The notes under the pieces: generated by a model | The model's input: the letters and a program-made list of their open reading frames with translations, nothing else | Told to the model about the DNA's origin: nothing | The model's database searches: none | In this document: piece after piece, positions 24,863-36,252 of the stretch | Position numbering within the stretch: the first letter of the stretch is position 1 | How the letters are laid out: every line of letters starts with the position of its first letter | Source of the DNA: an uncultured Bacteriovoracaceae bacterium | GTDB lineage: Bacteria > Bdellovibrionota > Bacteriovoracia > Bacteriovoracales > Bacteriovoracaceae | Assembly: GCA_964012805.1 (NCBI GenBank) | Contig: CAXGUD010000013.1 | Location: forward strand, 1 to 64,000 | Length of the DNA: 64,000 nt | Direction: 5' to 3' | Translations under genes and position numbers: made by a program

Positions 24863-26146
24863 TTATATTGGTGAACTAAGGTCTACGTTACCTATAGATT
24901 TGTAATTTGATGTCTTTTGCTCCATATAAAAACGAATTTTAGCAAGAGGATTAAAGGTGTAGCCATCTTTCCCTCTCAAAATGTATTTTCTTTTTGAGTC
25001 CTTCTTATCATCGGAACACTTCGGCTCTATCAGCTTTCTCAAGCGGCTAACACTTGTATAAATCAACTTATCGTGAATAAGAGGGTTATACTCATCTTTC
25101 CATATCGCTTTAGCCAAGCCTTCTTTGTCGTAGTAAATGCCGGAGTTTTTTGCAAGTAAGAACAAAATCTCAAGAAGAACGAAACGGTGTTTAAAATCTA
25201 TGACTCCAAGAGACTGTTCATGAACCTTCCTATTCGTTCTATCAAGAAAGATGTCTACGTTACTGTCATTAATATCCTGAACTTCATTTTTAACAAGACC
25301 TTCTAATCTTTTGAAAACACGGGGGTCTGAAAAGCTCTGGGCCAGATTACAAAATAAGAGGGACTTATCAAACTGCCCCATCATCTTGTATGCCATACCT
25401 TTTCCTAGAAGAACGTAGCCATGAAGATTCCAGCACTTTTTATCTAAAAGGTTTGCTGTAGCATTATCGAAGGCAGCTAAGGCTTCCTCAAACCTATCCA
25501 TTTCAAAATAAATTTTGCCAAGGTAAAACTCCATTGCCCCTGCTAAATAAAACTTGTTTATTATTTTTAACAATTGTTTTAGTTGTTGCAGGTAATTGAT
25601 CGCAGTTTCATAGTCTTTTGTTTGATAATAGTTCGTTGCTAGCGCCAAAAGACATTTCGCAAGTAGCTCTGGCTCATTTTCCTGCTTTGACTTTTGATAG
25701 GAAATTAAAAAGGCTTCTCTAGCTTCATCAAAAGCTCCACCATAATTTTTAACAAGGCCAAAATTAAAGTAATACTCAGCATTTAAGGAGTCCAACCTAA
25801 CTTTTAGGTCTAAAACGACCTCTTCAGCTTTGGTGATCCACTTCTCAGCTTCAAAGTTTTCAAGTCTTTCCGAGCATATTCTGATTAAGAAACCCAAAAT
25901 CTTGAGTTTGGAAAAATGCTCTTCACCTTCATTGAAATATGCTAAGGATTTTTTAAAGTTTTCTTCGGACTGAGACAAGTCAGCCTTGTCGTAATGAATT
26001 TTGCCTAGTTGATAAAAGGCCCTTGCATAGTCATAAGGCTCATAACTTTGGTTTATAGCAATACTATCGAGGGTAGAACCTTCTCCTATTAAGAAAGGGA
26101 GGGAAGTTGATGGTTCTATACCATACTGATTCGTTTCATTCCCCAT
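24863..26146 (-). CDS. TPR-repeat protein with C-terminal OmpR-type winged-helix domain
   Basis: Repeated YQLGKIHY / YLGKIYFEM TPR-like helices; C-terminal LAKAIW...IYTSVSRLRKLIE...GKDGYTF. Confidence 0.8.
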   Translation of the reverse strand: MGNETNQYGIEPSTSLPFLIGEGSTLDSIAINQSYEPYDYARAFYQLGKIHYDKADLSQSEENFKKSLAYFNEGEEHFSKLKILGFLIRICSERLENFEAEKWITKAEEVVLDLKVRLDSLNAEYYFNFGLVKNYGGAFDEAREAFLISYQKSKQENEPELLAKCLLALATNYYQTKDYETAINYLQQLKQLLKIINKFYLAGAMEFYLGKIYFEMDRFEEALAAFDNATANLLDKKCWNLHGYVLLGKGMAYKMMGQFDKSLLFCNLAQSFSDPRVFKRLEGLVKNEVQDINDSNVDIFLDRTNRKVHEQSLGVIDFKHRFVLLEILFLLAKNSGIYYDKEGLAKAIWKDEYNPLIHDKLIYTSVSRLRKLIEPKCSDDKKDSKRKYILRGKDGYTFNPLAKIRFYMEQKTSNYKSIGNVDLSSPI

Positions 26147-29280: not shown

Positions 29281-32200
29281 ATGAAGCAGAAGCACTTTCC
29301 CATTATAAACTCTAAAGATGAATCTCATGCTCAAGAAAAATTAAAAGGTTTTTACGAAAAAAATATGATTCCAGCAGAGAAGAAAAACTACTTAACCAAC
29401 CTAAAAGAATCTGAAGGCCCTTTTTTGGCCGTTGAAAGTGCTGATGGAGATAAGCCTCATTTTCTTATGGACGCTGCTTCTCAAATAGCTACATTGGGAC
29501 TCGGTTTCAACCCTCAAGTTTTCTTTGGAGCTTCCCATCACTTAGATGCTTGGCTTAACCAAGAGCAAGGGCGTTTTGGAGAGCTTAGACAAACTTATGA
29601 GTCTTTTCTAAAAAGAAAACTCGGTTGGCAAACTCTTTCAACAACATTCTGCCATTCAGGAGCCGAGGCCAATGAAACGGCCCTTGGTTATTGTTATAAA
29701 TCAAGAAAAAGAGAATCGGCCAATAGAGTCCTTGCTTTTGAAGGATCTTTTCATGGAAGGATGATGGTGACCCTCTCAGCAACCTGGAACCCAGCTAAGA
29801 GAGAGCCCTTTGAGTGGGAAGATTTTAAAGCTGTTTACTCACCATTTCCAGACTCACCGACTGGTGCCATCAAAGCTGATTTTCCTGACGGTTGGAGAAA
29901 GCTTTGGGATCAAGCTCCTTTAAAAGACTGGTCTGTGCCTAAAGAGCTTAAAGAAAAGGATCCTCTCCTTCTTAAAGAAATAGAATGCCTTAATGTTGTA
30001 AGAAATCAACTAAATGAAGGTAAAATATTTGCTATCATTGCCGAACCAATGCAGTGTGAAGGTGGTGACCGCTACGGAACAGACCGTTTTTTTACGGCCC
30101 TTCTTTTGATGGCAAGAAGCTTTTCTGTCCCTGTTATTTTTGATGAAGTTCAAACGGGTTACCACTTAGGACGTGCCTTTTTCTGGCACTCTCAATTTGA
30201 CCTTAAAGATGAAAACGGTGACCTTCTAGCTCCTAACTATGTGACTATGGCAAAGAAAGCTCAAATTGGTGCCGTTATCTCTCACGACTCGTTTAAATTT
30301 AATGAAGAGTTCTCAACTCTTTCTGCCTATAGAGGTTACCACCATGCTATTTCTCTAGACCAATCAACTAAAAAGATTCTAGAGCTCGAAGAGTTTTCTC
30401 TTTCAAAGCTTTGCCAATATGCAGAAAAATACAGCGATCATATTGAAGGACCGAGAGGTCTAGGAATAAGCTTTGCTTTTGATTTCAAAAAGAAAGAACA
30501 AGTTTCAGAGTTTATTAAACGTAGGTTTCAATACGGCCTCCTATACTACCCCGCAGGAGATAAAACTCTTCGTTTCCGCCTTAACTTAAGTTTTACAAAA
30601 GAAGATATCACCTTTCTTTTTGATGCTCTTTCGGCAATTGCTGATGAAGTTTTTGAAGGCAAAGAACCTCAATTGCCAACGAAAGTTGAATCGAGAGATC
30701 GGAACACAAACGGAATATTTGAGTGGCAAAAGCTCCTTCTTTCAGAAAAGCTTAGAAACCTTCAAGACTCTAAGGCCTTAAACCAAGAAGAACTTTTTGG
30801 TGAAATTCAAAAATTAATGGGGCTTTCTGAAGATTTAAAATTAGTTAAAATAGACGGAAGTAACTTTTCCTCCTTAGAGCAAAAGATTCAAACACTTCAA
30901 GAAGAAGTTTACGAGCCAGCAAGAAGAACAGGCCTTGAAGTTTTTGAAAAGACCGCCAAAGATCCAAAAGGAATTTGTCTTGGAATTTTAAAAGACGAAG
31001 AGCTTCTTGGAATTTGTTTTTCTTCTCAAATGGGTAACTACCCTCTTGAAAGAGGGCTTAGAAGAGATCGTTCCTTTCATGACGAAAATTGTTTCTATAT
31101 GGTCGACACAACCATTTCATCGAAACTCCGTGGGGCCGGTTTAGGGAGAGACCTTAAATACGCTCTAACTCTTTTAGCACAAAACCAAGGGGTCATTGAA
31201 GTCAATGGAAGAAATAGAGACCAGATGGCCTCATCCATGCTTAATATTAATCTTTCGCTTGGTGGAGTTGAAAGGTTTTACATCGAAGAAGACTACCCTG
31301 ACTTTGAGCCTAATAGGGATGTGATCTATTATAGTGCTCCAACAAAATGGACATTACCACAACTTGAGCTCTCTCAAGCAATGTCCTCACCACTTGGCAT
31401 TTTTGACCTTTCTCCTGATTTTATAGAGGAGCAATTACCAAGTGCTGTTAATAAAGTTTGTCTTTCAAACTTTGTTGGTGAAAGGTTCTTGTCTCACGTA
31501 AAAGATATTTTTCAATTAGTTCCAGAAGAGTTGAGGCATGGCTATACAGCAAGTGGGCAGTCTGAATGTGTCGACAAATTAGTTAAAATTTTGTGGCATA
31601 AAATTAAAGAAAAAAGAACGGTTCATAAGATGATGACTTTTGATGGGCATTTCTTTGGAACAGGAAGTTTTCTTTCAAGATCCCTTTCTCTTCCTGAAGA
31701 AGCTTATTTTCCAGTAACAGTCATGGACAACCCTGAGTCTCATAACGAAGAAGACCTTCTTGAAAAAATAGAGCAAGAATTTGAAACAGGTGATTATTTG
31801 GCGGTTTGGATTGAACCACTCCTTCAAAAAACATTGAAGAGAGTAAGTGTTTCTTTCCTTAAGCAGTTAAAAAAGCTTTGTCAGAAGTTTGACCTTCCTC
31901 TTGTTTACAATGAAACAGCTTCACAGATGTATCGCTATAGTGATGACAACTATTTCCTCTCAAATGTTAGTGAGTTAAGACCCGACTGCGGTCTTGCCTA
32001 TATGGGTGGACAAGCGGCTTTTGTTTATTGCTCTGACGAGTATTTCTTAGAAAAACCTCTTATGATGATCAGTACTTGGGATGGGGATGAATTCTCTCTA
32101 GGTTGTTATCATAGGGCCATGACGATGATCGAAAAAGATCATGGAAAATTTAAAGAGTTAAGAAAGAACTTTGATAAGAAATTAAAAGAAGTTCTTGAAA

Positions 32201-32355
32201 AGTACCCAACCAATCATATTGAAATAGAAAACGGTGTTGGTTATTTCAAAGGGAAAATTCCTCATCAGTTGTCTCAATACCTAAACTCACATAAAGATGC
32301 GTATCTTGTTTGTCCATCAACAAGCTCGATGAGACGTTTTTTAGAGGAGTTTTAA
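29281..32355 (+). CDS. Fusion: class III aminotransferase (Lat/GABA-AT-like) + GNAT + degenerate class III aminotransferase
   Basis: SGAEANE, SFHGR, EPMQCEGGD, DEVQTG and MAKKAQ in the first domain; GNAT motif A SKLRGAGLG; second copy with SGQSECVD, EPLLQK, NETASQ and ISTWDGD. Confidence 0.88.
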   Translation: MKQKHFPIINSKDESHAQEKLKGFYEKNMIPAEKKNYLTNLKESEGPFLAVESADGDKPHFLMDAASQIATLGLGFNPQVFFGASHHLDAWLNQEQGRFGELRQTYESFLKRKLGWQTLSTTFCHSGAEANETALGYCYKSRKRESANRVLAFEGSFHGRMMVTLSATWNPAKREPFEWEDFKAVYSPFPDSPTGAIKADFPDGWRKLWDQAPLKDWSVPKELKEKDPLLLKEIECLNVVRNQLNEGKIFAIIAEPMQCEGGDRYGTDRFFTALLLMARSFSVPVIFDEVQTGYHLGRAFFWHSQFDLKDENGDLLAPNYVTMAKKAQIGAVISHDSFKFNEEFSTLSAYRGYHHAISLDQSTKKILELEEFSLSKLCQYAEKYSDHIEGPRGLGISFAFDFKKKEQVSEFIKRRFQYGLLYYPAGDKTLRFRLNLSFTKEDITFLFDALSAIADEVFEGKEPQLPTKVESRDRNTNGIFEWQKLLLSEKLRNLQDSKALNQEELFGEIQKLMGLSEDLKLVKIDGSNFSSLEQKIQTLQEEVYEPARRTGLEVFEKTAKDPKGICLGILKDEELLGICFSSQMGNYPLERGLRRDRSFHDENCFYMVDTTISSKLRGAGLGRDLKYALTLLAQNQGVIEVNGRNRDQMASSMLNINLSLGGVERFYIEEDYPDFEPNRDVIYYSAPTKWTLPQLELSQAMSSPLGIFDLSPDFIEEQLPSAVNKVCLSNFVGERFLSHVKDIFQLVPEELRHGYTASGQSECVDKLVKILWHKIKEKRTVHKMMTFDGHFFGTGSFLSRSLSLPEEAYFPVTVMDNPESHNEEDLLEKIEQEFETGDYLAVWIEPLLQKTLKRVSVSFLKQLKKLCQKFDLPLVYNETASQMYRYSDDNYFLSNVSELRPDCGLAYMGGQAAFVYCSDEYFLEKPLMMISTWDGDEFSLGCYHRAMTMIEKDHGKFKELRKNFDKKLKEVLEKYPTNHIEIENGVGYFKGKIPHQLSQYLNSHKDAYLVCPSTSSMRRFLEEF

Positions 32356-32421
32356 AAGCTCCTCTAATTTAAAGAGATTTGGAAATCTTAGTGATGAGTG
32401 CTAGCGAAAAGGAATGAGAGA

Positions 32422-33549
32422 GTGACTGAGAAGAATTACGATTTTCCTTATATAAAATATGAGGCCAATAAATCGGCGAAAGAGTGGGGCCAGGCACATG
32501 GTGAAAGTTTTAGAGAAGGAATTAAAGAACTTGTCGAAATTAGAAAAAAGCTCATGCTTTCTAAGAACCCGGCCCTTAGAAGTCAGCTTAACCCTTTAGC
32601 AAAACTTCAATATGAGGCCACCAAGAAGTTTGCTCCTGAAATTACAAAAGAAATTGAAGGGATTGCTGAAGGGGCGAATATTGACCTAACCGAAGTTGTG
32701 ATCCTTAATAACTACACAGACTTTAGGGACATCCAACTTCCAGATGAAGGCTGTTCAACCGTTCACGTTCAAACAAATAATCAAATCCTTTCTGGTCAAA
32801 CATGGGATATGCATGGATCAGCAAAGAGGTTTGTCAACGTCATCCACATACCAAAAACAGGTCATACACCAGAGTCCGTTGTCTTTTCTCTCATTGGTTG
32901 CGTTGGAATGATGGGAATCAACACTTATAAAAACTTAATTGGTGTTAATAATATTAATACGGCCAATGCTCAAGCGGGACTTGTTTGGCCTGCTCTTGTC
33001 AGAAAGGTTTTAAAAGAAACGAACCTTTCAGGAATGAGGCAAAAGCTGATTGAAGCTCCCGTCACTTCTGGCCACAATTACCTTATTTCTTCCCTTGAAG
33101 GTGGAGAGCATTGGGAAATTACACCAAGACTTCAAGAAAAAGTTGCTGAAATGACAAAAGAGCAGTCTGGTGGAGTCTTTCACACCAACCATTGCCTTGG
33201 CCAAAAGGTTCAAGAGGAAGAAGACACTTCTTCCATTAGTTCAACCACCCATGGACGGTACGAACTATTAGGTAAAAAGGTTCCTAATGTAGATTCTTTT
33301 GAAAAGTTGAAATCACTTTTAATGGATCATGAAGGTTATCCAAAATCAATTTGTTCTCACTTTCAAAGTGGCGCCCAAGACCCTTCTATGACTTGTGGTG
33401 GAGGGATTGCTGACTTTATTCATGATGACTATTACTTTTGGAGAGGCTGTCCTGAATACGATGATAACTTTAGAAGTTATCAGTTTTCTCTAGAAGGAAG
33501 TGAAGGAGAAAAAACCTTTGTTCTCAAAGAGTCTAAAAACTCTCTCTAA
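32422..33549 (+). CDS. Peptidase C45 family Ntn-hydrolase/acyltransferase (IAT/Tan-like)
   Basis: WGQAHGE, EIEGIAEGA, autoproteolytic DEG|CST, GQTWD, HTNH; probable GTG start at 32422. Confidence 0.85.
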   Translation: MTEKNYDFPYIKYEANKSAKEWGQAHGESFREGIKELVEIRKKLMLSKNPALRSQLNPLAKLQYEATKKFAPEITKEIEGIAEGANIDLTEVVILNNYTDFRDIQLPDEGCSTVHVQTNNQILSGQTWDMHGSAKRFVNVIHIPKTGHTPESVVFSLIGCVGMMGINTYKNLIGVNNINTANAQAGLVWPALVRKVLKETNLSGMRQKLIEAPVTSGHNYLISSLEGGEHWEITPRLQEKVAEMTKEQSGGVFHTNHCLGQKVQEEEDTSSISSTTHGRYELLGKKVPNVDSFEKLKSLLMDHEGYPKSICSHFQSGAQDPSMTCGGGIADFIHDDYYFWRGCPEYDDNFRSYQFSLEGSEGEKTFVLKESKNSL

Positions 33550-33615: not shown

Positions 33616-34830
33616 ATGGCAGACTATCCCTATTTTTTTACTTGGGCCAATCAATCAAGCCCCACAAAAATAGAGTTTGAAAGTAATGAAGATCATTTTT
33701 TTGTTTTAAAAAATGGTCACAAAGTTTACGACCTCTCTTCCATAAGCTTTCAAGCCTCCTTTGGTTTAAATAATGAAAAAATTAAAGAGGCCATTAAAAA
33801 GCAATTAGACTCTTTTTCTGTTGTATCGCCGAAAGCCATCTTCCCTTTAAAAGATCAAGCTACTTACAAACTCCTTAGCCATTTGGATGGATATAAAAGA
33901 CAAATCAATGCATTGGATGGAAAAGTCTTTTATACACTCTCCGGTGCTGAAAGTGTTGAAAACGCTTTAAAGATGGCAAGACAGATAAAGAAGAAAAACG
34001 TCGTTCTTTGCCGAGAAAGGTCATATCATGGTGCCTCTCTTGGTGCTTTAAGTGTCACAGGTGACTGGAGGAATCAACCTCATCAAACCGTTGATGAATG
34101 GACGACCCGAATTCCTGAACCTCACAATGATCCTTTTTTAACTCAAACTGAACTCATCATAAAAGATGTGGGGCCAGAAAATATTGCGGCTTTTTGCCTT
34201 GAAACTATAACCGGTGGAAATGGAGTTATCATTCCTCCAGAAAGTTGGTGGCAGGGAATCCAAAGGCTTTGTGATCAATATAATATTTTTCTTATCTTAG
34301 ATGAAGTTATTTGCGGTTTTCAAAGAACTGGCAGGCGCTTTGGTTTTCATAATTACCCTTTTTTAAAACCACACTTTATCTGTATGTCTAAGGGAATCAC
34401 GGGCGGTTACATCCCTTTTGGAGCCGTTTGGGCCAATAGAGACATTGTCGAATTTTATAATGAAAACGTACTTTCTTGCGGGCTCACAAGTTACGCCCAT
34501 CCCTTAGGTCTCGCTGCCATGGATGCCATTTGTGACATTTTAGCCGATGGCCATTTTTTAGAAAATATAGTTAATTTAAAAAAAATGATGAAAGGCTATT
34601 TTTTAAAATGGGAAGAGCTGCCGAACGTTAAAGAAATACGGACTATTGGCCTTTTGGCTGCCATTGAATTTACGAGTGATGTGACCCTCGACTTTAACTA
34701 TTTTTTAGAAAGAGGAGTTCACCTAGTTGTTCAACCTCAGACACTTATTCTTTCTCCCGCTCTTACTTTTAACAAAATGGATTTACAGGCGGCTTTAGAA
34801 ACATTAAATAAGGCCTTGAGAGAACTTTAA
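33616..34830 (+). CDS. Class III omega-aminotransferase (beta-alanine/taurine/GABA-pyruvate type)
   Basis: SGAESVENALK, SYHG, ETITGGNG, DEVICGFQRTG, SKGITGGY, GLTSYAHP. Confidence 0.88.
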   Translation: MADYPYFFTWANQSSPTKIEFESNEDHFFVLKNGHKVYDLSSISFQASFGLNNEKIKEAIKKQLDSFSVVSPKAIFPLKDQATYKLLSHLDGYKRQINALDGKVFYTLSGAESVENALKMARQIKKKNVVLCRERSYHGASLGALSVTGDWRNQPHQTVDEWTTRIPEPHNDPFLTQTELIIKDVGPENIAAFCLETITGGNGVIIPPESWWQGIQRLCDQYNIFLILDEVICGFQRTGRRFGFHNYPFLKPHFICMSKGITGGYIPFGAVWANRDIVEFYNENVLSCGLTSYAHPLGLAAMDAICDILADGHFLENIVNLKKMMKGYFLKWEELPNVKEIRTIGLLAAIEFTSDVTLDFNYFLERGVHLVVQPQTLILSPALTFNKMDLQAALETLNKALREL

Positions 34831-34863: not shown

Positions 34864-35568
34864 ATGACTCAACAAAGTTCCAAAGTTTTTCAAAGTGCTA
34901 AAGATGCACTTCACGATATAAAATCCGGAAGCGCTCTTATGAGTGGAGGCTTTGGTCTCTGCGGTATTGCAGAAAATTGTATTGATGCCTTAAGTGAGAT
35001 GGATATTAAGGACCTTACGGTTATTTCTAATAATATTGGAAACTCAGGACGGGGGCTCGTTAAAATTTTAATTCAGCATAAAATTAAAAAGGCTTATTGC
35101 AGTTATGTTGGGGGAAACCCTGACCTTGAAAAGCAAATGCTTGCTAAAGAAATTGAGGTTGAACTTGTCCCTCAAGGAACCTTTAGTGAAAGGATTAGGG
35201 CCGCTGGCATGGGAATAAGAGGTTTTTATACGCCAACAGGTGCTGGAACACTTGTTGCTGAGGGAAAAGAAGAGAGAACGTTTGACCGTCCTTGCATTTT
35301 AGAACTCCCTCTGCACGCTGACTTTGCCATTATCAAGGCCCAGAAAGCGGACCCTTACGGGAACCTCTGGTTTAAAGAAACCGCAAGAAACTTTTCTCCA
35401 CTTATGGCGATGGCCTCAAAAATTACTGTTGTTGAAGTGGAAGAGCTCGTTGAGCTCGGTGACATTCCACCAGAAGACGTTCACGTGGCGGGCATTTTTG
35501 TCCAAAGAATTTTTAAAGGGTCAAACTACAAAAACGATATTGAATTTTTAAAAGTGAAGGGAGAATAA
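34864..35568 (+). CDS. scoA: 3-oxoacid CoA-transferase subunit A
   Basis: GGFGLCG, ISNN, SYVGGN, PQGTFSERIRAAG, ARNFSPLMA. Confidence 0.9.
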   Translation: MTQQSSKVFQSAKDALHDIKSGSALMSGGFGLCGIAENCIDALSEMDIKDLTVISNNIGNSGRGLVKILIQHKIKKAYCSYVGGNPDLEKQMLAKEIEVELVPQGTFSERIRAAGMGIRGFYTPTGAGTLVAEGKEERTFDRPCILELPLHADFAIIKAQKADPYGNLWFKETARNFSPLMAMASKITVVEVEELVELGDIPPEDVHVAGIFVQRIFKGSNYKNDIEFLKVKGE

Positions 35569-35570
35569 AG

Positions 35571-36206
35571 ATGACTTGGTCAAAAGAACAAATGGCGGAT
35601 AAAGTAATTTCTCTCTTTGAAAAAGATACAAGTGTAAACCTAGGAATAGGTTTACCAACCTTGATAGCTGAAAGAATTCCAAAAGAAAGCAGAGTCATGA
35701 TTCATTCAGAAAATGGCGTCCTTGGTGTTGAGGGAAGACCTGATGAAAAAAATGTATCGCCGACTCTTATCAATGCAGGAAAAGAAACCATTGCTGTAGG
35801 CAAGGGTGCTAGTTACTTTGACAGTGCTTTAAGTTTTGGAATGATTCGAGGGGGTCACTTAGATTACTGTGTGCTCGGTGGAATGGAAGTCGATGTTGAA
35901 GGAAACCTCGCTAACTGGATGATTCCAGGAAAAAAAGTCACAGGAATGGGCGGTGCCATGGACCTTGTTCATGGAGCAAAAACAATTATCGTGATGATGA
36001 CCCACTTTAATAAAAACGGCAGTCCCAAAATGTTAAAAAGGTGTGGGCTCCCTTTAACAGGACTTAATGTTGTAGACATAGTGGTAACAGATAAAGGGCT
36101 TTTTTCTATTAAAGAAAACCGCTTTGAGGTTATTGAACTTGCTGCTGATGTCTCTAAAGAATCTTTAGGTATTAGTGAGGAACTATTAATTGAAAGACAT
36201 AAATAA
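35571..36206 (+). CDS. scoB: 3-oxoacid CoA-transferase subunit B
   Basis: VNLGIGLPT, catalytic SENG, MIRGGH, LANW, GMGGAMDL. Confidence 0.9.
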   Translation: MTWSKEQMADKVISLFEKDTSVNLGIGLPTLIAERIPKESRVMIHSENGVLGVEGRPDEKNVSPTLINAGKETIAVGKGASYFDSALSFGMIRGGHLDYCVLGGMEVDVEGNLANWMIPGKKVTGMGGAMDLVHGAKTIIVMMTHFNKNGSPKMLKRCGLPLTGLNVVDIVVTDKGLFSIKENRFEVIELAADVSKESLGISEELLIERHK

Positions 36207-36216
36207 CTAGTAGATA

Positions 36217-36252
36217 AAAAAAGGGGGCCTCCTGCAAAGGCCCCCTCTTTTT
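36217..36252 (+). terminator. Rho-independent terminator closing the aminotransferase operon
   Basis: AGGGGGCCT/AGGCCCCCT stem plus T tract. Confidence 0.85.

Follow-up and report, generated by a model that had tools for sequence, protein, structure and literature searches.

The window analysed here is a stretch of 64,000 nucleotides from an uncultured Bacteriovoracaceae bacterium (assembly GCA_964012805.1, contig CAXGUD010000013.1; the genome is called G000 below). The subject of this analysis is one of its genes, whose 1024-amino-acid product, P0001, unites in a single polypeptide a class III aminotransferase (D1), a domain of the GNAT acyltransferase fold and a second, degenerate copy of the aminotransferase (D3) (Table 1). 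The gene is placed after thrS and ddl and before genes for a C45-type acyltransferase/amidohydrolase, a second class III aminotransferase (AT2) and the two subunits of a 3-oxoacid CoA-transferase. Every motif that an earlier note on this DNA had named was found at its position in the open reading frame (ORF): S156FHGR, D288EVQTG, K325K326AQ, L430RFR, R617GAGLG, V723NKVCLSNF, N877ETASQ, A906YMGGQ and S931T932W933. P0001 has 983 homologues at E<=0.001, which databases name as class III aminotransferase only, sometimes plus GNAT, and whose names put G000 with kin of Bacteriovorax/Halobacteriovorax; the D1-GNAT-D3 order is clean in 95 of 102 long representatives, and one more has the order plus an overlapping extra hit.

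Table 1. Features of the fusion gene and its surroundings, with the KamA-like gene encoded elsewhere in the genome.
Feature	Position	Strand	Basis
Aminotransferase-GNAT-dead-aminotransferase gene (P0001)	29281..32355	+	1024-aa ORF without internal stop
D1, complete class III (PF00202) aminotransferase, aa 1-460	29281..30660	+	Profile, fold, alignment to Lat
K325, predicted Schiff-base lysine of D1	30253..30255	+	Aligns with Lat K300; 128/128 homologues
D1 aa 333-347, deletion site of the trans Thr loop	30277..30321	+	[SN][TS]W in 0/128; mean conservation 0.40
GNAT domain, aa 500-696	30778..31368	+	Fold match, motif A R617-G622
D3, degenerate class III aminotransferase copy, aa 697-1024	31369..32352	+	Profile matches, hhalign to D1
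D3 N724-K725-x-C-L-S-N-F731, first predicted trans segment	31450..31473	+	K725 128/128, N730 126/128
D3 S931-T932-W933, predicted trans loop, equivalent to Lat S329-T330-W331	32071..32079	+	128/128; loop conservation 0.85
C45 autoproteolytic acyltransferase/amidohydrolase, predicted deacylase	32398..33549	+	NF040521 over cut-off
AT2, PRK06062/taurine:2-oxoglutarate-AT-like class III aminotransferase	33616..34830	+	Profile
3-oxoacid CoA-transferase subunit A	34864..35568	+	TIGR02429 over cut-off
3-oxoacid CoA-transferase subunit B	35571..36206	+	TIGR02428 over cut-off
Intrinsic-terminator-like hairpin closing the putative operon	36222..36246	+	9 pairs, 7 G-C, T-rich tail
TPR protein with C-terminal winged-helix (Trans_reg_C) domain	24863-26146	-	
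KamA-like (lysine 2,3-aminomutase-like) gene	G000:C2:12895-14247 (L074:1411-2763)		Radical-SAM/PLP motifs

Pfam places Aminotran_3 at amino acids 32-453 of P0001 (1.9e-38, 132.7 bits against a gathering cut-off of 30.5). The nearest known kin of D1, by profile and by fold, are lysine epsilon-aminotransferase (Lat) and the eukaryote-type 4-aminobutyrate aminotransferase (GABA-AT). Its fold superposes on Lat (PDB 2cin) with Z 37.9 and a root-mean-square deviation (rmsd) of 2.4 over 394 aligned residues, and on GABA-AT (PDB 1ohv) with Z 34.8, AcOAT also reaching Z ~38; sequence alignment gives 135.5 bits with Lat and 126.7 bits with pig GABA-AT. D1 lies far under the equivalog cut-offs of both families (106 versus 520.8 for TIGR03251, Lat; 89.6 versus 567.15 for TIGR00699, eukaryote GABA-AT). 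The Schiff-base Lys, the pyridine Asp, FHGR and the E/R switch are all kept, the cis residues being G127, A128, F157, H158, R160, E255, E260, D288, Q291, K325 and R433. In an alignment of 128 full-length homologues (A1), outside which six degenerate or partial ones were kept, K325, D288, E260, F157 and Q291 are invariant and R160 and R433 occur in 127. The earlier note had given the Schiff-base residue as K325/K326; the first of these stands, and K326, which does not align with the Lat lysine and is Arg in 11 of the 128, falls away. Missing from D1 is the Thr loop that a class III subunit donates to its partner: the motif appears there in none of the 128 homologues, and the loss is a true deletion, of 16 residues relative to Mycobacterium tuberculosis Lat 314-330 (taking out N328-S329-T330) and of 11 relative to D3 by hhalign, in agreement with the earlier statement that D1 has no (S/N)TW-G loop.

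D3 was not detected by Pfam on the single P0001 sequence. With a profile built from 41 D3 sequences, 117 matches at E<=1 were obtained among sequences of solved structures, the best 60 being class III aminotransferases without exception (top match 1.3e-8), and hhalign relates it to the D1 profile with probability 97.5, Atlas giving 0.95 for family homology of D3. In the D1-D3 alignment D288 stands opposite N877, K325 opposite G909/G910 and Q328 opposite Q911, and the gap in D1 stands opposite the STW-bearing loop of D3. Among the 128 homologues Asp is outside the four commonest residues at the N877 position, and any Lys within amino acids 905-912 is found in 3; FHGR is degenerate and the N-terminal part of the fold is missing. 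S931, T932, W933, D936 and K725 are nevertheless invariant, and N730 occurs in 126, so that D3 does appear as first described, without the Lys and the Asp and yet with STW. A distant lineage has D3 shortened to ~220-250 amino acids, which is the large interface domain only, and a search for stand-alone D3 proteins returned 47 matches of 121-578 amino acids, many from short contigs. To judge from the sequences, D3 likely arose by duplication and not through the joining of a Lat-type paralogue to D1. Motifs of the Lat/GABA-AT type are present in each of the two copies, and among 82 other class III proteins from fetched loci, a set containing no Lat-type outgroup for placing D3, STW occurs in none and KKxQ in one chance-looking match. 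It speaks against this origin that neither Lat nor pig GABA-AT is among the best 60 of the 117 PDB matches of the D3 profile.

We propose that D1 and D3 very probably form an intramolecular pseudo-dimer with a single active site. In Lat, according to a passage of PMC9780415, N328, S329 and T330 are supplied by the other subunit and T330 binds the PLP (pyridoxal 5'-phosphate) phosphate and K300; fold-type I enzymes require oligomers with the site at the interface, and little is known on heteromers, as stated in part of PMC9309667. By analogy, PLP would sit on K325 with F157, D288, Q291, G127 and A128 around it, D3 would pack on D1 as the partner subunit of a dimer would, S931 and T932 of D3 would bind the PLP phosphate and K325, and the N724-F731 segment would wall the substrate pocket. 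The second site would be empty, the trans loop serving it having been deleted from D1. Conservation of the two copies is reciprocal: the trans loop scores 0.85 in D3 versus 0.40 in D1, the first trans segment 0.65 versus 0.39, and the DEVQ segment 0.61 in D3 versus 0.86 in D1. The same reciprocal motif loss, for which the earlier note had suggested a search, is present across the 128 aligned homologues, and STW, on whose conservation in the dead domain that note had made its reading depend, is kept in every one of them. The pattern persists in homologues down to ~28% identity and is therefore not a matter of chance.

Co-presence of K325 and T932 was scored in 223 of 232 relatives, those covering GNAT and D3. 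Both residues occur in 216, neither in 6, Thr only in 1 (P0271, whose D1 is partly missing) and Lys only in none. Since the two vanish together in six relatives, the Thr appears to be kept only while D1 is alive. An AlphaFold model of the P0001 chain (72 sequences) has a mean predicted local distance difference test (pLDDT) score of 95.3 and a predicted template modelling (pTM) score of 0.95, the latter as expected if the modelled chain is one rigid body throughout. A structure search with the full model found none of the top 50 solved chains superposing on both aminotransferase copies, a result that says nothing on geometry. It must be held against the proposal that the contact between T932 and PLP is one that we infer. 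D3 might instead leave its own D1 incomplete, acting as a scaffold or pairing with the D1 of another chain, or D1 might need no trans Thr; a domain-swapped dimer would be compatible with a single-chain prediction. We regard this as highly improbable in view of the whole-chain pTM, of an STW that is invariant and disappears in step with K325, and of the deletion from D1 of its own loop. The core claim, that one copy is live and provides the cis residues, the other dead and provides the trans residues, and that together they make one site, is well supported by reciprocal conservation, by co-loss and by the single-body model.

The GNAT domain gives a weak Pfam match (amino acids 541-640, E 0.008, under the gathering score). 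Its fold, which is of the RimI type (Z 18.0, rmsd 3.6, 154 aligned residues), and its motif A at R617-G622 confirm that a domain of acyltransferase fold lies between the two aminotransferase copies. In the 128 homologues position 617 is Q or R in 111, G620 is kept in 103 and G622 in 127, and further conserved residues are Y544, E545, R548, D596, Y606, D609, K626, R644-N645-R646, M653, N657 and Y672. The domain matches no named subfamily: compared with AblB/YodP it reaches a probability of 1% against one AblB, and the AblB family matches in 0 of 41 members; PF04958 (AstA) has no match on P0001 and a single one in G000, on another contig. A low-sensitivity search for stand-alone GNAT relatives among shorter proteins returned five matches of 46-81% identity, apparently pieces of this family. 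The six relatives lacking K325 and T932 still keep the GNAT motifs GRNRD and YEPxR. As these motifs persist where the aminotransferase is dead, the GNAT appears to be selected on its own, and the ligand-sensing role that had been entertained for it is disfavoured, motif A and invariant pocket residues being kept and the GNAT outliving the aminotransferase. In P0173, P0240, P0242, P0255, P0259 and P0266 both aminotransferase copies are decayed and the GNAT looks intact, as if an acyltransferase were carried on a pseudoenzyme scaffold.

Distribution was examined in 301 genomes of the phylum and in 67 genomes of the family (41 carriers of the fusion gene and 26 non-carriers), and the evidence from gene context comes almost wholly from inside this phylum. 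The gene was matched in 62 of the 301: G000, 41 of the 67 family genomes and 20 elsewhere. General scans yielded two loci from genome contigs and two family loci among 80 metagenome loci, and on plasmids none of 67 matches covers 80% of the protein. An N-terminal aldehyde dehydrogenase is fused to the protein in 10 of 31 scanned relatives and also at locus L140; all eight fused dehydrogenases tested match the AstD-like gene of G000 best, and in 2 of 2 AstD (~1e-114) is preferred to SSADH (~1e-62). These fusions (L140:5633-10999; P0200, P0210, P0211, P0230, P0234, P0241) run to 1560-1790 amino acids in the order AstD-like, a ~110-amino-acid unannotated domain, D1, GNAT and D3; the unannotated domain also starts unfused distant members, and at L140 no pathway genes lie beside the fusion. 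One genome carries a second copy of the gene without C45, near ftsW, murG and a mur ligase (L059, G090:C2), with a shorter, divergent GNAT, and one very long protein, P0258 (5578 amino acids), has about three class III aminotransferase-like regions.

The putative operon closes with a hairpin that is the top site of 17, shuffled sequences giving 9.9 +/- 3.4 sites; a promoter scan was uninformative (15 sites versus 20 expected). In 41 loci of the fusion gene C45 is found in 37, CoA-transferase in 27 and AT2 in 27. Among distant loci a thiolase adjoins AT2 in 6 of 18, and AT2 is YodT-like in 7 of 7 cases from the distant lineage. The TPR/Trans_reg_C gene lies upstream of thrS and divergent from it in 23 family loci and is a possible regulator.

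Across the 67 family genomes C45 is present in 41 of 41 carriers, a CoA-transferase orthologue in 39 and a 450-amino-acid KamA-family gene in 38, and each of the three is found in 0 of 26 non-carriers. The KamA-like protein, for which TIGR03820 is the best family, retains the CxxxCxxC and PGGGGK signatures seen in lysine 2,3-aminomutase 2A5H, and on plasmids its closest relative is found two genes upstream of ablB. Members of this 450-residue clade share 70-80% identity and, in the phylum sample, are confined to fusion carriers; G000 has two further KamA-family genes, an EpmB-like one on C16 and a divergent one on C26. A control search with AstA revealed a second astA in 21 of 26 non-carriers and in 0 of 41 carriers. 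In each of 10 loci the extra astA has a second astC beside it, and AstD and HglS are close by in 6 of these; HglS occurs in 20 of the 21 double-astA genomes against 11 of 41 carriers. These astC2-astA2 loci likely encode an undescribed N-succinyl route for alpha-lysine. At the same ten loci without the fusion (L120-L129, e.g. L120:3532-9390) the pair stands beside a 2-oxoacid dehydrogenase E1 gene. An astC-astA-astD cluster without astB is also present in G000 (C19:73209-77246; L092, L094); no astB was found in the five genomes tested, so this cluster probably does not serve the canonical arginine route.

The earlier note put forward no pathway, and gene context offers one. We read the fused dehydrogenase, aminotransferase and GNAT, together with the inseparable C45, as a module that acylates, transaminates, oxidises and deacylates. 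It is rather probable that P0001 first acylates a diamino acid of the lysine type, beta-lysine being the likeliest, and next removes its omega-amine by transamination, in the order of the arginine succinyltransferase (AST) pathway; two consecutive steps of the predicted lysine breakdown are then likely carried out by one protein. AT2, the 3-oxoacid CoA-transferase, the thiolase and KamA fit a second module that leads from a beta-amino acid to a 3-oxo acid. The full route, from lysine via beta-lysine to 3-oxoadipate, is plausible, if short of probable. Lysine would be converted to beta-lysine by the KamA-like enzyme encoded elsewhere in the genome, and the GNAT would acylate the backbone amine to N3-acyl-beta-lysine, leaving the later aldehyde unable to cyclise. 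D1 would pass the terminal amine to 2-oxoglutarate, with R160 and an E260/R433 switch working as they do in Lat, and the resulting semialdehyde would be oxidised to N-acyl-3-aminoadipate by the AstD-like dehydrogenase. The C45 enzyme may then remove the acyl group, AT2 may convert 3-aminoadipate to 3-oxoadipate, and CoA-transferase and thiolase may yield succinyl-CoA and acetyl-CoA. In beta-lysine the two amines are spaced as in ornithine and the chain is as long as that of lysine, a combination that would suit AstD-like and Lat-like enzymes together.

Several observations weigh against the beta-lysine route. The KamA-like gene scores 281 bits against the TIGR03820 cut-off of 525, and it lies beside the operon in none of the 8 carrier loci fetched, nor in G000. 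A KamA-type gene is present in 215 of 301 phylum genomes at 1e-75 and does not discriminate outside the family; of 20 distant carriers 16 match KamA, a result once counted as support and dropped on the strength of this control. The AstD-like gene is the single AstD of the family (66 of 67 genomes), shared and not specific to the route, and the proposal that a second AstD-like gene of G000, on C36, is a lysine-specific dehydrogenase was dropped for the same count. The AT2 of the window is not YodT-like (30%). Two carriers, G219 and G273, have the fusion and C45 but neither the KamA clade nor CoA-transferase, and G285 also lacks the clade. A ThrRS tree was built from 50 rows: 22 carriers, G000 among them, 25 non-carriers and 3 outgroups, with G174 and 20 carriers left out. 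The carriers group there in a single clade and the genomes with two astA genes in a basal grade, so that the mutual exclusion of fusion and second astA comes down to roughly one event, and the KamA link to roughly one co-gain and two co-losses. Both co-losses occurred in genomes that also lost astA; in G219 and G273 astA is gone, but AstD, the fusion protein and C45 are kept, and there the C45 gene has moved away from the fusion (L130, L131).

The last pair of genomes bears on a substrate of another kind. Alpha-lysine (or ornithine) could be acylated, N2-acyl-lysine passing through N-acyl-2-aminoadipate semialdehyde to 2-aminoadipate and 2-oxoadipate, with the CoA-transferase recycling succinate or activating glutarate and the one-site architecture unchanged. 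Lat being the closest kin of D1, the replacing astC2-astA2 pair being accompanied by HglS, a 2-oxoadipate enzyme of which G000 has a homologue, and G219 and G273 keeping fusion and C45 without the KamA clade are all consistent with such a scheme. It leaves the KamA clade, the thiolase and the YodT-like AT2 unexplained, however, and 30 of 41 carriers have no HglS match, the model being weak on these short forms; we consider it somewhat unlikely. The activities of P0001 may also be non-consecutive, the GNAT making N6-acetyl-beta-lysine and AT2 3-oxo-6-acetamidohexanoate, from which CoA-transferase and thiolase would give 4-acetamidobutyrate, C45 would free GABA and D1 would act as GABA transaminase. 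Such a route, which is yod-like, is reported from Pseudomonas B4. As a set the genes match those of the Bacillus yod-kamA operon, D1 is nearly as near to pig GABA-AT as to Lat, and no separate GabT was evident among the six class III genes of G000. The GNAT, however, has no significant AblB/YodP similarity, the fused dehydrogenases are AstD-like rather than SSADH-like, and replacement by an astC2-astA2 pair fits consecutive steps, which makes this reading unlikely. Finally, a prey-derived polyamine (putrescine, cadaverine) or diaminobutyrate (DABA) might be acylated, transaminated, oxidised and deacylated, again without change to the architecture. Polyamine and diaminobutyrate acetyltransferases are among the many tied fold neighbours of the GNAT, and putrescine and DABA transaminases are found among the class III relatives; this is improbable, given that 127 of 128 homologues keep R160, the residue to which the substrate carboxylate binds in Lat, and that KamA and the 3-oxoacid genes would go unexplained. 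We return to the beta-lysine route and suggest, tentatively, that a single-chain, one-site class III aminotransferase with its own acylating enzyme heads an undescribed aerobic path from beta-lysine to 3-oxoadipate, interchanging with an alpha-lysine AstA/AstC/HglS route in sister lineages. That this path would join the beta-ketoadipate exit is put forward with similar reserve.

P0001 shares with Lat (TIGR03251; 2cin) and eukaryote-type GABA-AT (TIGR00699; 1ohv) the fold, KKxQ, the E/R switch, FHGR, LRFR and the (S/N)TW trans loop. Those enzymes form homo-oligomers in which each dimer has two sites, whereas P0001 carries the cis and trans halves on one chain and has one dead copy and an inserted GNAT. 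The class III (omega) transaminases, major biocatalysts, work as obligate homo-oligomers. One-site fold-type I enzymes with one live and one lysine-less copy are known in serine palmitoyltransferase (SPT) LCB1/LCB2, the viral single-chain SPT and the glycine decarboxylase P-protein. The likeness to P0001 lies in that pairing, in some cases within a single chain; they belong to other subfamilies with other reactions, are without an inserted acyltransferase and are of independent origin. SPT is an LCB1/LCB2 heterodimer in the part of PMC13669308 that describes it. In titles and abstract openings of the literature, and in the PDB, we found no class III one-site pair and no account of P0001, its architecture or (in the literature) its route; the fusion protein is real and conserved, and as a class III case of a pairing known elsewhere it is apparently new. 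If the proposal is true, a natural monomeric one-site form separates cis from trans determinants and offers a scaffold for asymmetric active-site engineering, and it is a clean case of subfunctionalisation after duplication in which relatives with both halves decayed serve as natural controls. Gene context further predicts breakdown of lysine from prey by two interchangeable, apparently undescribed routes.

In the AST pathway, AstA, AstC, AstD and AstE acylate, omega-transaminate, oxidise and deacylate. The predicted route resembles it in the order of steps, in the AstD-like fusion of relatives and in the second astC-astA where the fusion is missing; it differs in that the GNAT is not PF04958, the aminotransferase is Lat-like and not AstC, and the deacylase is C45 and not AstE, with astB in 0 of 5 genomes. 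The yodTSRQP-kamA operon of Bacillus (B. velezensis locus) encodes an aminotransferase, CoA-transferase A/B, a peptidase, AblB and KamA. B. subtilis KamA is described in a passage of PMC6522883 as a proven aminomutase of unassigned role, and YodT there as uncharacterised. Common to both systems are a class III aminotransferase, CoA-transferase A/B (39% and 45% identical to those of the window), a deacylase, an acetyltransferase and a lysine 2,3-aminomutase, the last being KamA-like here; unlike the Bacillus operon, the system described here has two aminotransferases, a non-homologous GNAT, C45 in place of the YodQ peptidase and an unlinked kamA-like gene. The comparison may thus have a bearing on the role of the yod-kamA operon itself.

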